Shown here one piece after another: positions 19,953 through 51,355 of a DNA stretch of 64,000 nt. Position 1 is the stretch's first letter. Every line of letters begins with the position of its first letter. Source of the stretch: Bacteroidetes bacterium GWF2_35_48 (lineage in GTDB: Bacteria > Bacteroidota > Bacteroidia > Bacteroidales > GWF2-35-48); contig MEOG01000093.1 of assembly GCA_001769125.1 (NCBI GenBank), positions 1,726 to 65,725 on the forward strand, written 5' to 3'. Both the position numbers and the translations under genes were made by a program. Below the pieces are notes generated by a model. It was not told the DNA's origin and made no database searches. It saw only the letters and a list, made by a program, of their open reading frames with translations.

Positions 19953-20963
19953 TTATTTCAGATACACTCTTTCGCCCGAATTTTTCAGACTTTCCTGAGC
20001 CGCTTCAATCATTCTGACAATTCGCAATGCATGTTTCGGACCTGTTTTTGGGGGCTGATTTTTTTCAATACAATCCAAAAAGTGTTCACATTCTTCCATA
20101 AGTGGTTCTTTGTTATCAACACGCGGAACATGAATATCTCCGGAGCGATACGTAAGCTGAAACTCGCCAAAAGTGTCAGGCTCACGCACTAAGTCAACGC
20201 CCATATCATACACTTTTATTTTTTCAGAAGGATGCGTATCGTCATAGGTAATCATTTGTTTATCTCCGACAATGTAACTGCTTCTTAGCTTTACAGGTGA
20301 AAGCCAGCTCAACTGAACATTTGCCAATATATCGCCTGGGTAATGCATGTTTATAAAAGCAACATCACATACATTTTGATAAACAGACGCTTTCCCTACT
20401 ACCTGAATCCATATTGGTTCTTCTTCGAGCCAGTATTCAAGAATAGAAAAATCATGCGGCGCCAAATCCCATATTACATTAAAATCATGCTTTACTTTTC
20501 CAAGATTAATGCGGGTAAGCTGAATAAAATCAACATTTCCCACGCTTCCCGATTTCAAAAGTTTTTGCACCTGAATTACCGGAGGGCTGTATAAAAAAGT
20601 ATGCCCCACCATGAGAATTCTGTTTCTTTCAGCAGCCAGCTTTGTAAGTTCTATCACTTCTTCTGAAGATGCGCTTAATGGTTTTTCAACCAGAACATGC
20701 TTGTCGTGCAGCAAGGCATCTTTCGCAATCTGAAAATGCGTAATGATATTTGTTGCAATATTTACCGCTGTAACTTCAGGATCTTTTAGTATGTCAAAAT
20801 AATCTTTTGTAATCGTTGAATGAGGGCAATTTATTCTGGCAGCGCTCATTCTGTCTTCTTTAAGGTCGCACACATATTTCAGGCGCGCTCTTCTGTTCTG
20901 ACTCCATACTCTAGAGAGATTAGGTCCCCAGTAGCCGTATCCGATAACTCCTATTTGTTTCAT
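19953..20963 (-). CDS. Gfo/Idh/MocA oxidoreductase
   Basis: IGVIGYGYWGPN, VLVEKP, MVGH and WDLAPHD motifs; start set at MKQIG (20963). Confidence 0.9.
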   Translation of the reverse strand: MKQIGVIGYGYWGPNLSRVWSQNRRARLKYVCDLKEDRMSAARINCPHSTITKDYFDILKDPEVTAVNIATNIITHFQIAKDALLHDKHVLVEKPLSASSEEVIELTKLAAERNRILMVGHTFLYSPPVIQVQKLLKSGSVGNVDFIQLTRINLGKVKHDFNVIWDLAPHDFSILEYWLEEEPIWIQVVGKASVYQNVCDVAFINMHYPGDILANVQLSWLSPVKLRSSYIVGDKQMITYDDTHPSEKIKVYDMGVDLVREPDTFGEFQLTYRSGDIHVPRVDNKEPLMEECEHFLDCIEKNQPPKTGPKHALRIVRMIEAAQESLKNSGERVYLK

Positions 20964-20966
20964 TTT

Positions 20967-21015
20967 TGTTTCATGTTTCATGTTTAATGTTTAATGTTTA
21001 ATGTTTCATGTTTCA
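20967..21015 (+). repeat. Heptamer array (TGTTTMA) x7
   Basis: tgtttca x2, tgtttaa x3, tgtttca x2. Confidence 0.9.
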
Positions 21016-21044
21016 ACCGCTGACTGAGCGGAGTCGAAGTCAGC
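21015..21044. repeat. REP-like hairpin AACCGCTGACT-GAGCGGAGTCGA-AGTCAGC
   Basis: Near-identical copy at 26944-26977; related copy at 50001-50070. Confidence 0.85.
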
Positions 21045-23952: not shown

Positions 23953-24098
23953 GTTGCAGGTTGCATGGTTGCATGGTTGTAAATTGTGATTGATGTTTGA
24001 AATTGTAGTGTTGAGCGAAGCGTCGCACTGAGTTTGTCGAAGTGTCGAAGTATGCTACGCACCTACAATGAAAACCAAACCAACCTGCAACCTGCAAC
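23953..24098. repeat. GTTGCA(G/TG) array, nested REP (24008-24055), inverted CTGCAAC array
   Basis: gttgcag gttgcatg gttgcatg ... caac ctgcaac ctgcaac; the central 48 bp is the reverse complement of 30774-30821 with 2 mismatches. Confidence 0.85.
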
Positions 24099-27806: not shown

Positions 27807-28023
27807 ATACTGAAACTTGGCAGGTTTGCAAACAAGGCTGCTTAGTTTCAATTATACTGAGCGAATACAAATTTAATTATATTTTTGTAGCCCTTTTTAG
27901 CTATGCTGTCGAAGTATCTCTTGCATGGATTGCTGTTAACAATTGTTTCTATTTAGTGCTTGCAAGAAAACGTCAATTTCTGTGTTATGCTTGTCCTTAA
28001 AATCAGTCATGTACTTTAGTACA

Positions 28024-28044
28024 CCTGTCTGCCGACAAGGCAGG
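28024..28044. repeat. REP-like CCTGTCTGCCGACAAGGCAGG
   Basis: Same family as the hairpin at 42491/42856-42870 and the CCTGCC..GGCAGG units at 50017-50058. Confidence 0.7.
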
Positions 28045-28198
28045 CTCCTAATTTTAAACCCTTCGCAAGCCTTGAACTTGACATTTTCTTATCAAGCACT
28101 GACACTGTCAAGCAAAAAACATAAGTTTTCTTGCTGACACTAATTACAAAAATTATTAGTTCTTTTTCATACGAAAGCTCAGTAAATAAGATAAAAAT

Positions 28199-30744: not shown

Positions 30745-30843
30745 TATTGGGGATATGGGGATGTGGATACGTTGCATGCTTCGACACTTCGACAAACTCA
30801 GTGCGACGCTTCGCTCAGCACAGGTGCAACGTATTTACATGCC
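30745..30843. repeat. Filled hairpin element: TGTGGATACGTTGCA[48-bp nested REP]TGCAACGTATTTACATGCC
   Basis: Insert at 30777-30824; the empty form is at 44426-44459. Confidence 0.85.
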
Positions 30844-33327: not shown

Positions 33328-33719
33328 GGGGCCGGTTTTGGTTTTGACAGCAAGTTGAAAGGATATGTAAGCATGCCGGGTAACGTGGTTCTTCCCGTAA
33401 AAAAGTACTGCAAACAATTAAAAGGCGAAAATTCATACGCGCTTGCAGCTTAATCACCAAGTGACTTAAGCACAGAACAGGACAAGGTCTTGTTCCAGGC
33501 TGTTCCGCTACAGATTTTTCTCAGCAATCTGAAGCATCGGAGCACTAGTTCTGTTGAGATAGCATTTGTGATGTTTCTAAGCAATTGCGAAATAACAGAA
33601 ACTAAGGTTCAGATAGGTCTCTTTTCTCCAGTCTGCACCCTACAATTTCAGAAAAGATAAGCATGTAGAAAGCATATTGGTTCCTTGTTTGGACCCGGGT
33701 TCGACTCCCGGCGGTTCCA
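33328..33719 (+). ncRNA. ssrA: tmRNA; tag peptide (A)GENSYALAA at 33424-33453
   Basis: 5' GGGGCCG..GGTTTTGAC; T-arm CCGGGTTCGACTCCCGG; acceptor 3' strand CGGTTCC-A; tag ORF ends YALAA-TAA; CCA is not fully encoded. Confidence 0.96.
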
Positions 33720-33736
33720 CACATTTAAGAAACACA

Positions 33737-44395: not shown

Positions 44396-44481
44396 AATGT
44401 GGAATGTGGAATGTGGAATGTGGAATGTGGATACGTTGCATGCAACGTATTTACATGCCAAGTACATGCCAAGTACATACC
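44396..44481 (+). repeat. (AATGTGG) x5, perfect 20-bp palindrome ATACGTTGCATGCAACGTAT (44431-44450), then TACATGCCAAG x2
   Basis: Direct reading; this is the empty form of the element at 30762-30843. Confidence 0.92.
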
Positions 44482-48564: not shown

Positions 48565-49956
48565 ATGAAAATTATTTTTTCAATATTATTTTTAATTTTT
48601 TCAGGATTATTTCTTACAGGTCAGAATGTTCAAATAAAAGGGAATAATCCTTTGTTTGTAGGTAAGACAATTTTTTTCTGCACATATACGGATCAAATCA
48701 CATACCTGTTTGATACGCTTTGTACATCTAACGTTGACGCAAATGGAAACTTTAACTGTTCTTTTTTTCTTGATGAAATAAAACCTGTTTTTACATCATT
48801 CGGAGCATACAAATATTTAATCTATGCAGAGCCCAGAAAAATATACACTGTAACATTTCCTGACATAAAAGATAAAAGTAAAGCTGATGATATAAACCCC
48901 TATTTTGAAGAGATAACCTTGTTTTTGAAAATTGAGAATTCTGATCGCTCCGAATTAAATAATGCGATTTTTCGTTTTGATTTAACATGCAATGATTACA
49001 TCAATGCACGCTACAATGAAATTTATAAGCAAGCTAAAAATTCCGGGGTTGATAAAATGATAAACTATATAGATTCGCTTTTTTCTTTCTGTAATCATCC
49101 GTATTTCATAAAATACAAAGAATATAAGTATGCGCTGATTAAATATTTTGCTTACGTGAGGCACGAACAAACAATGACACGTGAATTTTATAAAGGAAAG
49201 CCGGTTCTGTATCACAATACATCTTATATGAATCTTTTCAATCAGACATTTGATAATTACTTTACTTATTTTGCTAAAACCACCGAGGGATCAACATTGC
49301 CAGACCTTATTGGCAAAGCAAAAAGTCCGCGACGAATTAAAAACCTGTTGAAAAAGAATAACGCTTACGATGATGAAGTCCTACAGGAGCTTATCATATT
49401 AAAAGGCTTAAGGGATGTTTTGCTCTCAGGAGAATATAGTAAAAATGTTATTATACAAACACTCGATTCATTAGGACTACAAACGTCAGTTCCTTTTCAT
49501 AAAACTATTGCAGGAAATATTGTAAAACTTGCCATGCAAAAAGAACCTGCTGTATCATTAAATACAATACCTTTATTCAATACAGACAGTACTGCTTTTA
49601 ATACAGAGAAGTTTAAAGGAAAATTTGTATATCTGAATTTTTGCAGATGCAAAAGTTATCCCTGTCTTGAAGAAAGTGAATTGATAAAAATCTGGAATAA
49701 AAAAAAGCCTTTCAATATAGAGTTTATAACTGTTTTTGTTGAAGAAACGGCAGAAATAGTAAGAATACATCATGCTAAAAATAAAGCAGACTGGACTATT
49801 TTATATTGTCCGAAATCGGAACCAATATTAAAAACATTAAAAGTCAGAGCTTATCCGGCATATTTTTTATTTGATACAGACGGAAAAATGCTAATGCCTT
49901 ACGCGAAAACAATGAAAGAGGGATTTGAGTCTTTTTTCATGAGAACATTCAAATAG
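48565..49956 (+). CDS. Exported protein with C-terminal TlpA/thioredoxin-like domain (non-canonical CxxC)
   Basis: Signal peptide; FKGKFVYLNFCRCKSYPC, IEFITV, KVRAYPAYFLFD.DGK. Confidence 0.7.
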   Translation: MKIIFSILFLIFSGLFLTGQNVQIKGNNPLFVGKTIFFCTYTDQITYLFDTLCTSNVDANGNFNCSFFLDEIKPVFTSFGAYKYLIYAEPRKIYTVTFPDIKDKSKADDINPYFEEITLFLKIENSDRSELNNAIFRFDLTCNDYINARYNEIYKQAKNSGVDKMINYIDSLFSFCNHPYFIKYKEYKYALIKYFAYVRHEQTMTREFYKGKPVLYHNTSYMNLFNQTFDNYFTYFAKTTEGSTLPDLIGKAKSPRRIKNLLKKNNAYDDEVLQELIILKGLRDVLLSGEYSKNVIIQTLDSLGLQTSVPFHKTIAGNIVKLAMQKEPAVSLNTIPLFNTDSTAFNTEKFKGKFVYLNFCRCKSYPCLEESELIKIWNKKKPFNIEFITVFVEETAEIVRIHHAKNKADWTILYCPKSEPILKTLKVRAYPAYFLFDTDGKMLMPYAKTMKEGFESFFMRTFK

Positions 49957-49961
49957 TGGGG

Positions 49962-50079
49962 GTTGCTGTTGCAGGTTAAAAAGGTTGCAGGTTGCATGTT
50001 AACCGCTGGTTGAGCGCCTGCCTGTCCGCCTGCCTGCCGGCGAGGCAGGGTAGGCAGGGAGTCGAAACCAAGGTTGCAG
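49962..50079. repeat. GTTGCAG units flanking a triple-nested REP (50007-50070)
   Basis: TGGTTGAGCG[CCTGCCTGTCCG[CCTGCCTGCCGGCGAGGCAGG]GTAGGCAGG]GAGTCGAAACCA. Confidence 0.85.
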
Positions 50080-50080
50080 A

Positions 50081-51355
50081 TTAAGCTTCGTTTATTATCA
50101 ACTTCAGAAGATCTATTTTATTATTATCTACTTTTAAAACTTTAATGATGAACGTGTGCTCAAGCTTTATTGTAATTTCTTCGTTTTCCAAAGGAATGCT
50201 ACCATGATAATAAAGTAAAAATCCGGCTAGAGTTTCATATTCATTCGAAACAGGAAGACTTATATTAAATTTCTCGTTCAGGTAATCTATTTCTAAGCGA
50301 CCCGACAACGAATATTCATTTTCTGCAATCTTTTTTTCTTCATAGATTTGGGTGTCGTGTTCGTCTTCAATTTCTCCGAAAATTTCTTCAATAACATCTT
50401 CAATCGTTACAATTCCGGCAGTTCCTCCAAACTCATCAACAACAACTGCAAGATTTTTTTTATCGTGTATAAACTTTGTAAGTAACTTTTGTGCAGACAT
50501 AGATTCCGGCACATAAATGACATCTATAAGAACACTTTTTATTGAAGGAGGATTTTTGTAAAGTGCCGACAAATGAACGAATCCGATAATATTATCTATA
50601 GAATTTTCGTAAACAATAATTTTAGAAAAACCTGTATGTATAAATTTTCCCTTTAGTTCATCCATTGGATCATCTACTTCTACAGCTTCAATTTCAGTTC
50701 TGGGTACAATACATTCACGCAGTTTTACTTCTGAAAAATCAAGCGCATTCTGAAATATTTTTATGTCCCTGTCTATTTCATTATTTTTGAGTACTGAATC
50801 ATTTTGGGTTGTTTCATCAAGAAGATTTCCGAGATCCATTTTCGTAAATGCTATTTGCTCATTTTGCCTACTTACATTTACCTTGAAAATCCTGAGCAAT
50901 AAAAAGGTTAAACTTGTAAACATTTTTACAACAGGATACAATAATATATATATAATAAAAACCGGAGCAGCCATAAAATTCAGAAGTGTATTTGGAATCG
51001 TTCGGAACACGGCTTTCGGTATAAATTCAGCAGTAACAAGAATCAGAGCTGTTGATAAAATCGTTTGAATTATCAGTACGCCCGCTGATGATTGAATATA
51101 TTGCATAATCAAAGGCTCCAGAACATACGCCATCTGGATTCCATAAACTACAAGCGAAATTGTATTTCCCACAAGCATTGTTGCAATAAAATGCGAGGGA
51201 TTATGAGAAAGAATTGAAACAATTTTCGCATTCAGGGAACCCTGTTTTTTTTCAAGCTCCAGCCTTAATTTATTGGACGTAACAAAAGCTATTTCCATTC
51301 CGGAGAAAAAAGCTGAAAAAATCAGCGATATAAGTATTACAATCAAGTTATCCAA
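50081..51355 (-). CDS. HlyC/CorC (hemolysin-family) CNNM-CBS-CorC protein
   Basis: SAFFSGMEIAF, LVGNTI, AEFIPK, CIVPRTEI, VVVDEFGGTAGIVTIEDVIEEIFGEIEDEHD, YETLAG. Confidence 0.93.
   Translation of the reverse strand: MDNLIVILISLIFSAFFSGMEIAFVTSNKLRLELEKKQGSLNAKIVSILSHNPSHFIATMLVGNTISLVVYGIQMAYVLEPLIMQYIQSSAGVLIIQTILSTALILVTAEFIPKAVFRTIPNTLLNFMAAPVFIIYILLYPVVKMFTSLTFLLLRIFKVNVSRQNEQIAFTKMDLGNLLDETTQNDSVLKNNEIDRDIKIFQNALDFSEVKLRECIVPRTEIEAVEVDDPMDELKGKFIHTGFSKIIVYENSIDNIIGFVHLSALYKNPPSIKSVLIDVIYVPESMSAQKLLTKFIHDKKNLAVVVDEFGGTAGIVTIEDVIEEIFGEIEDEHDTQIYEEKKIAENEYSLSGRLEIDYLNEKFNISLPVSNEYETLAGFLLYYHGSIPLENEEITIKLEHTFIIKVLKVDNNKIDLLKLIINEA

Follow-up and report, generated by a model that had tools for sequence, protein, structure and literature searches.

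How did a hairpin at nucleotides 50007-50070 come to hold a second hairpin in its loop, and the second hairpin a third? The window, that is, the whole stretch of 64,000 nucleotides that was analysed, is C93:1726-65725 of a 5.98-Mb assembly with 34.8% GC, labelled G000 here, from a Bacteroidales bacterium whose nearest ortholog in our genome collection shows 64% identity. The nest is located between two convergent open reading frames (ORFs), 48565-49956 on the plus strand and 50081-51355 on the minus strand. Its parts, the array beside it and an empty host hairpin are as follows.

49962-50000, plus strand: heptamer-type array (GTTGCAG-like units) beside the host hairpin, resuming at 50071-50080
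50007-50011, plus strand: 5' arm of the host hairpin, TGGTT, pairing with 50066-50070
50012-50016, plus strand: left part of the conserved host loop, GAGCG, with the insertion point just 3' of G50016
50017-50028, plus strand: left half of the outer 21-nt unit, CCTGCCTGTCCG (outer unit: CCTGCCTGTCCG^GTAGGCAGG)
50029-50049, plus strand: inner 21-nt unit, CCTGCCTGCCGGCGAGGCAGG, which is the perfect 20-nt palindrome CCTGCCTGCCGGCAGGCAGG plus one base
50050-50058, plus strand: right half of the outer 21-nt unit, GTAGGCAGG
50059-50065, plus strand: right part of the conserved host loop, GAGTCGA
50066-50070, plus strand: 3' arm of the host hairpin, AACCA
21021-21042, plus strand: empty host hairpin, TGACT GAGCGGAGTCGA AGTCA, with a stem different from that of the 50007-50070 copy

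The locus reads TGGTT GAGCG (CCTGCCTGTCCG (CCTGCCTGCCGGCGAGGCAGG) GTAGGCAGG) GAGTCGA AACCA, just as an earlier note on this DNA had described it. The nest is real, and only the start had to be corrected, from 50001 to 50007, where the hairpin proper begins. The note was also right that the host loop, GAGCG plus GAGTCGA, is identical to the uninterrupted loop GAGCGGAGTCGA at 21026-21037, and that both inserts at 50007-50070 stand 3' of CG with no target duplication visible. Three separate DNA hairpin modules make up the nest, and its two inner layers belong to one micro-element family. Folded as a single long hairpin, the 50007-50070 segment gave -19.6 kcal/mol as DNA (z -2.0) and -42.5 kcal/mol as RNA (z -2.9).

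By chance, the outer 21-mer should occur about 6e-8 times in 5.98 Mb at 35% GC. We found it intact 29 times and split by the inner unit 12 times, so that chance is excluded. The reversed-pattern control gave 0 matches in all 61 Bacteroidales genomes. The two genomes of the same genus were non-syntenic at the locus; the downstream gene was kept at 71-75% and the neighbouring gene was different. In the Rfam search of the window, the sole match was the tmRNA gene at 33328-33722 on the plus strand (RF00023, 127 bits).

The host loop was counted in the whole genome with the pattern GAGCG|NAGTCGA, tolerating one mismatch in the right half. It occurs about 200 times: 177 copies are empty, 14 contain the 21-bp unit, and 11 contain an identical 42-bp double unit. 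The insertion point and the orientation were identical in 25 of 25 filled loops, and these were on at least eight different stems. Host stems vary between copies, and they co-vary. Many host hairpins across the genome are flanked by heptamer arrays; within the window, tandem arrays of GTTGCAG, GTTTCAT and similar units were observed at 49962-50000, 20961-21015 and 23953-24098. At six loci, a 20-nt relative of the unit is placed exactly between heptamer units, leaving 7-nt direct repeats on both sides. In total, 64 units of the family were found in this genome, none of them within a long ORF.

A second host repeat family, host B, and a nested pair of host-type hairpins are also represented in the window.

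27965-28142, minus strand: copy of host B, a MITE-like repeat of about 180 nt forming a long hairpin, with its hot-spot site 1 (between 28070 and 28071) empty
28024-28044, no strand assigned: related 21-nt unit CCTGTCTGCCGACAAGGCAGG at site 2 of this host B copy, a site that is empty in other host B copies
30777-30824, minus strand: 48-bp nested pair of host-type (GAGCG...TCGA) hairpins, splitting the palindrome acgttgca^tgcaacgt at its centre; empty counterpart at 44440/44441

Host B is present in about 100 copies genome-wide, with the ends TAGTG.../...CACTA, at least two subfamilies, co-varying helices and a fold z of -10. Site 1 was empty in 63 copies, filled with a 21-mer in 29 and with the 42-mer in one, and occupied by other tiny inserts in 14. 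By subfamily, 43 sites were empty, 14 filled and one filled with the 42-mer in the first, while 20 were empty and 15 contained a variant in the other. The other inserts of 20-27 nt belong to four sequence families in the 14 copies. At least five kinds of tiny insert (20-42 nt) have entered the site, CAAG^GCTT, which is a hot spot.

Modules other than the 21-mer have also been inserted in this genome. The comparison of the filled site at 30777-30824 with the empty site at 44440/44441 shows that hairpins of the host type are insertional modules in their own right. Similar palindromes elsewhere in the genome are occupied by 24-nt units (CCTGTGCT GAGCGNAGTCGA AGCA). A still smaller module, a 12-nt palindrome (TCGCCGCGGCGA or TCGCCGCAACGA), was observed within GAGTCGA of host loops on C140 (minus strand, near 76968) and at C41:84844.

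One unit of the family has broken a gene. A RAYT-like Y1 gene outside the window (C103:101256-101842) is interrupted by the 20-nt hairpin CCTGCCTGGCGGCAGACAGG at C103:101561-101580. When exactly these 20 nt were removed, the product aligned without gaps over residues 1-189, at 73% identity, with an intact ORF of another Bacteroidales genome, and homologs in G007 and G001 are intact. The Pfam match of the mended protein stops short of the junction, and the assignment of the hairpin as an insert rests on the homologs.

Comparisons of filled and empty sites were thus available for two host repeat families, for a broken gene of this genome and, in addition, for housekeeping genes of genome G011. 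Target-site duplication was absent at host loops, host B, self-nests and gene sites, with at most one ambiguous G. The filled and empty sites show that the CCTGCC...GGCAGG units of 20-21 nt are discrete, precisely placed inserts without target duplication, as had been proposed for units of about 21 bp, and they behave as non-autonomous insertional elements. MITEs of DDE transposons have terminal inverted repeats accompanied by a duplication, and this combination was not found here. We infer that the CCTGCC...GGCAGG units may still be mobile.

The nest had been explained in the earlier note by two sequential insertions at 50007-50070. The distribution of the 42-bp double unit did not agree with this. 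It is identical at 12 loci, namely 11 host loops on at least five different stems and one host B copy, and the inner unit in this genome occurs exclusively within the outer unit, all 12 times. The double unit therefore probably came as one piece; most likely, to judge from these copies, it formed once and then moved as a whole, keeping the ends of the family. The ratio of 42-mers to 21-mers was unequal between hosts (11:14 in the host loop vs 1:14 in host B, p=0.015). At the present locus, one insertion probably brought a preformed 42-bp double unit into the GAGCG^GAGTCGA loop of a REP-like hairpin.

Six of the 11 hosts with the 42-mer have a common stem (TAGACT/AGTCAA) and heptamer flanks, and some copies may therefore have spread along with the host. 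The same six hosts, with their one stem and same flanks, are what would be expected if the whole structure were a BIME-type mosaic, in which an immobile 21-mer and its host were copied together by duplication, recombination or gene conversion; the copies in host B, too, were possibly inherited by descent. At least eight different host stems, however, bear the 21-mer, which also occurs in an unrelated MITE, within a unique gene and, in other genomes, within unrelated genes and hairpins, and the flanking homology of 5 + 7 nt is too short for recombination. We regard the mosaic as quite improbable.

The unit was not restricted to the genome of the window. Four of 61 Bacteroidales genomes have the exact 21-mer, and a fifth has a variant differing by one base; among the holders, a genome of another family has 35 copies, while one genome of the same genus has none. 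Beyond these genomes, the 21-mer was detected, with unrelated flanks, in at least 120 metagenome contigs, whose GC content ranges from 0.30 to 0.72, and in viral sequence (15 stretches from about 11 contigs). One metagenome contig (L267, 11,196 nt) is 100% identical to C17:9459-20654 of G000, so that it revealed no strain difference; the metagenome collection must contain either the sample from which the genome came or the same strain. In another contig with two copies (L229), the genes between them were pilin-like, and no enzyme was found there. A search of the phylum allowing 5-8 central bases detected the family in 127 of 401 Bacteroidota genomes, with 0 to 99 copies distributed unevenly even within one genus.

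Identity of a 21-mer over contigs of such different GC content is unusual, and it raises the suspicion of an adapter, a synthetic oligonucleotide or an assembly error, or else of a functional motif that evolved many times independently. The sequences, however, come from many independent sources and assemblers (JGI, ENA, NCBI), positions are conserved in paralogous repeats, the units nest, and their bias for one reading frame in genes is strong (see below). Convergence is excluded by the identity of 21 out of 21 bases. An artefact or a recurrent motif is, in our judgment, scarcely credible.

Nests were also found in other genomes. In G011, the unit is nested in its own loop up to three to four layers deep, and in G002 two variants nest reciprocally, in both orders. 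Nesting results from the acceptance of the units by the loop of their own family. Hairpin arms could instead have grown by local duplication, through replication slippage or hairpin extension, with no insertion at all; arrays of the form (CCTGCCTGTCCG)n(GTAGGCAGG)m in G011, at times with n ≠ m, look like what slippage gives. But the inner and outer units at 50007-50070 are different variants, as are those in the reciprocal nests of G002, and slippage is unable to put one unit at unrelated loci. Slippage alone was rejected because it is contradicted by nests of variant within variant; it may act secondarily on nests, and as the origin of the structures it is highly improbable. Insertion, by comparison with empty sites, is also seen in genes of G011, where many copies are in frame: RfbB, RecR and a TolB-like protein have clean inserts of 11, 7 and 17 residues compared with their orthologs in G000. 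A MORN-like repeat protein of G011 (L108, G011:C245:3272-4360) has two in-frame nested arrays, which are read as NLPTLPTLPTGQAGGQAGGQAGGQ and SLPTLPTGQAGGQAGGQAGG.

The choice of the target was analyzed at independent sites in metagenome and viral contigs. With the unit removed, 28 of the 135 sites listed lay within a perfect stem of 6 bp or more, compared with 5.2% of 2,700 control positions (p=1.5e-9), so that among the matches listed placement departs from random in favor of hairpins. At 19 of these 28 sites, the unit abuts a stem arm or occupies the exact centre of a palindrome. Copies in tRNA follow the same rule, being placed in the T- and D-arms, for example GCAGG^TTCGAGTCCTG in a T-arm. 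Insertion into loops, which had been proposed from the present locus, stands as a bias; loops are not a requirement, as 61 of 168 independent sites listed (36%) are in frame within long ORFs. The base at position -1 among the 135 sites listed was G in 96 (71%), A in 32, C in 5 and T in 2, and position -2 was unbiased. The placement after CG at 50007-50070 is accordingly no general rule. Insertion is usually 3' of a purine, and the preferred spots are the stem/loop boundary, the palindrome centre and the loop of the unit's own family.

The genic copies also favor one reading frame strongly. Among the matches listed, 44 of the 61 genic copies read LPTGQA, and in 56 of the 61 the same strand of the unit is the coding strand (p=5e-8 against the 3:2 expected from open frames). 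This bias could come from selection on the peptide or from strand-specific insertion.

Which enzyme could insert such units? The earlier note had proposed two successive 21-bp insertions by an HUH (RAYT/IS200-like) transposase, which recognizes hairpins and acts on single strands. The units are indeed hairpins, precise, free of duplication and fixed in orientation relative to an asymmetric target (25/25), and strand-specific insertion would suit the shared coding strand of the 56 genic cases among the matches listed. The Y1 HUH domain had 12 matches in this genome (about 8-11 genes), and GTAG, with which many REPs are tagged (PMC3733652), is part of the unit. As in REP/RAYT systems, it is a short imperfect palindrome with many copies, mostly extragenic in this genome.

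The search for a cognate HUH nuclease did not, however, support the proposal. None of the 12 Y1-domain matches in the genome is flanked by CCTGCC units, and the strong RAYT-like genes each have a different repeat of their own; one RAYT-like gene, on C103, is itself broken by a hairpin of the family. Of 61 genomes, 47 had Y1 genes, whose presence did not follow that of the hairpins (p=0.48), and none of four unit classes showed a bias of orientation relative to GC skew. The GTAG is located in the loop and 3' arm (CCG^GTAGGCAGG), not in a 5' tail, and the perfect 20-nt variant is without it. Miniature elements of the IS200/IS605 type also fit poorly: they insert 3' of a fixed tetra- or pentanucleotide and have one hairpin at the left end and another at the right, while here the bias is confined to base -1, with none at -2 and -3, and the unit is a single hairpin. 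The sameness of the unit across very different genomes is unlike lineage-specific REP/RAYT pairs, and the identity of the 42-bp unit at 12 loci argues against repeated two-step events. We consider the model of two successive insertions by HUH chemistry improbable.

Other hairpin repeats of this genome do accompany such genes. Six RAYT-like genes (C88, C64, C82, C105, C140 and C105:176283) are each bracketed by their own distinct short hairpin repeat, one of them with a long tandem array downstream (gccatcggtgcaaccgatggc repeated). Several separate REP/RAYT-like systems appear to coexist in this genome.

A different lead came from small GIY-YIG genes, which were found through PF01541 matches. 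This genome has three of them, on C39, C64 and C124. The gene on C39 is intact, and a host hairpin bearing the 21-mer is located 39 nt upstream. The C64 gene is part of a cassette at C64:64098-64471, in the order of a tRNA 5' half with the hairpin CCTGCCTGCCTGCCGGCAGG, an 80-aa GIY-YIG ORF, and a full tRNA copy; the N-terminus is in another frame, which is probably a frameshift. The gene on C124 lies beside a tRNA gene, and a family-like hairpin is about 430 nt away. Genes of the C64 type form a distinct GIY-YIG subfamily ('HN.GKTRSTKGY.PW') of about 80 aa, lodged in tRNA genes.

The hairpins are associated with this one subfamily both by position and by genome. A family palindrome in a tRNA fragment about 25-70 nt upstream of the gene was found in G011 (two genes), G043, G025, G000 (C64), G099, G067 and the viral contig L353, and 11-13 of 25 subfamily genes examined across the phylum have an upstream family palindrome. 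Intact upstream tRNA copies lack the hairpin. Among 401 Bacteroidota genomes, hairpins were present in 30 of 35 with a subfamily gene versus 97 of 366 without (p=6e-12), and at least ten hairpins were present in 11 of 35 versus 10 of 366 (p=9e-8). The co-occurrence across the 61 Bacteroidales genomes gave p=5e-5. As a hint, the hairpin variant CCTGTCTACCGACAGGTAGA pairs with a second GIY-YIG subfamily ('...RTTKPY.PF...AGLSTDR'). Eight tandem genes of about 80 aa from another GIY-YIG subfamily were observed at L314 (G031:C1:3903600-3907000), in a genome without CCTGCC hairpins.

GIY-YIG genes were found beside solo hairpins at none of the 135 21-mer loci listed and at one of 35 viral loci with the perfect palindrome, and 10 of 21 hairpin-rich Bacteroidota genomes did not have the subfamily at the threshold used. 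The positional link could reflect broken tRNA copies serving as tolerant, well-structured targets. GIY-YIG genes and hairpins could also both track genomes rich in mobile DNA; Y1 genes have no such link. To our knowledge, GIY-YIG enzymes are nucleases and not strand-transferases, and we know of no hairpin insertion by a GIY-YIG enzyme.

From the associations above, we infer that the single-domain GIY-YIG subfamily of about 80 residues is the best candidate for the agent that moves the hairpins, and it is a better lead than HUH/RAYT. The candidate enzyme might nick selectively at a stem/loop junction, after which the hairpin would be joined in or the nick repaired. Such a nick with joining or repair would account for both the choice of target and the missing duplication. 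GIY-YIG homing endonucleases and structure-selective nucleases of the Slx1/UPF0213 type are known. The candidate is like a homing cassette in having a single GIY-YIG domain of about 80 residues inside a conserved gene (tRNA), and unlike homing endonucleases and Slx1-type enzymes in having neither a DNA-binding domain nor an intron.

The closest precedent is that of the small dispersed repeats (SDR4-6) of Nostocaceae, reportedly described by Elhai and colleagues in 2008, for which we know of no transposase. Like the CCTGCC units, they are dispersed units of 21-27 nt, far below the size of MITEs, with precise insertion and nesting in other repeats and in a palindrome. They are set apart by description, having other sequences and occurring in another phylum; unlike SDRs, the 21-mer has exactly one sequence in very different genomes and in viral contigs, is often in frame in genes, and is associated with GIY-YIG genes. 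One paper (PMC4390886) mentions that SDR5 inserts precisely into the HIP1 octamer.

REP, BIME and REPIN sequences with their RAYTs resemble the present family as short GC-rich palindromes with many copies, between convergent genes and in mosaics, and some REP families are found within small target palindromes or genes (Di Nocera et al. 2013, PMC3733652). Unlike them, the CCTGCC unit has no cognate RAYT that we could find and no 5' GTAG/CGTC tail, is not lineage-specific, and nests in itself in several layers.

Rickettsia palindromic elements are about 100-150 bp long and confined to Rickettsia, and the housekeeping genes that host them are apparently functional. PMC3733652 describes these elements as in-frame palindromic inserts in protein-coding genes. 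The likeness lies in palindromic in-frame insertion into genes, including housekeeping ones, which in the present family is seen in other genomes; unlike those elements, the CCTGCC unit has only 21 nt (7 codons), is widespread, and is intergenic in the genome of the window.

Fungal and algal mitochondria contain mobile GC clusters and double-hairpin elements, which are small GC-rich palindromes that spread in AT-rich genomes. They are similar in that they can sit in genes and that their genomes also hold GIY-YIG homing endonuclease genes, but they are organellar and of different sequence, with no link shown to the bacterial units. Our literature search returned no match to the DNA or peptide strings of the unit, and no account of these sequences, their spread, or the GIY-YIG link. 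The units belong with the ultra-small palindromic insertional repeats, and there is a real chance that the mechanism itself is new.

Taken as a whole, we consider it likely that the locus is a nest of palindromic micro-elements that insert precisely, that the double unit came as one piece, and that a GIY-YIG protein is the candidate enzyme. A bolder and rather doubtful extension is a cross-phylum, virus-borne system, in which the hairpins would be the cis-acting elements and the sole protein would be the GIY-YIG of about 80 residues in tRNA genes, cutting at stem/loop junctions where a hairpin is then joined in. If true, this would be a mode of transposition so far undescribed, with the smallest mobile unit known, and it would account both for the nesting and for the in-frame inserts of seven residues in housekeeping proteins.

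The question of how ultra-small repeats spread dates from the description of the SDRs of cyanobacteria. The nests provide a natural read-out of target choice, and the association with GIY-YIG genes offers a concrete candidate enzyme. The units confound gene calling, repeat annotation and alignment. They reshape hairpins between genes, and conserved proteins such as RfbB and RecR gain loops of seven residues from them. If the units are mobile, they would be among the smallest mobile DNA known (20-21 nt), common letter for letter to very different bacteria and to viral contigs.
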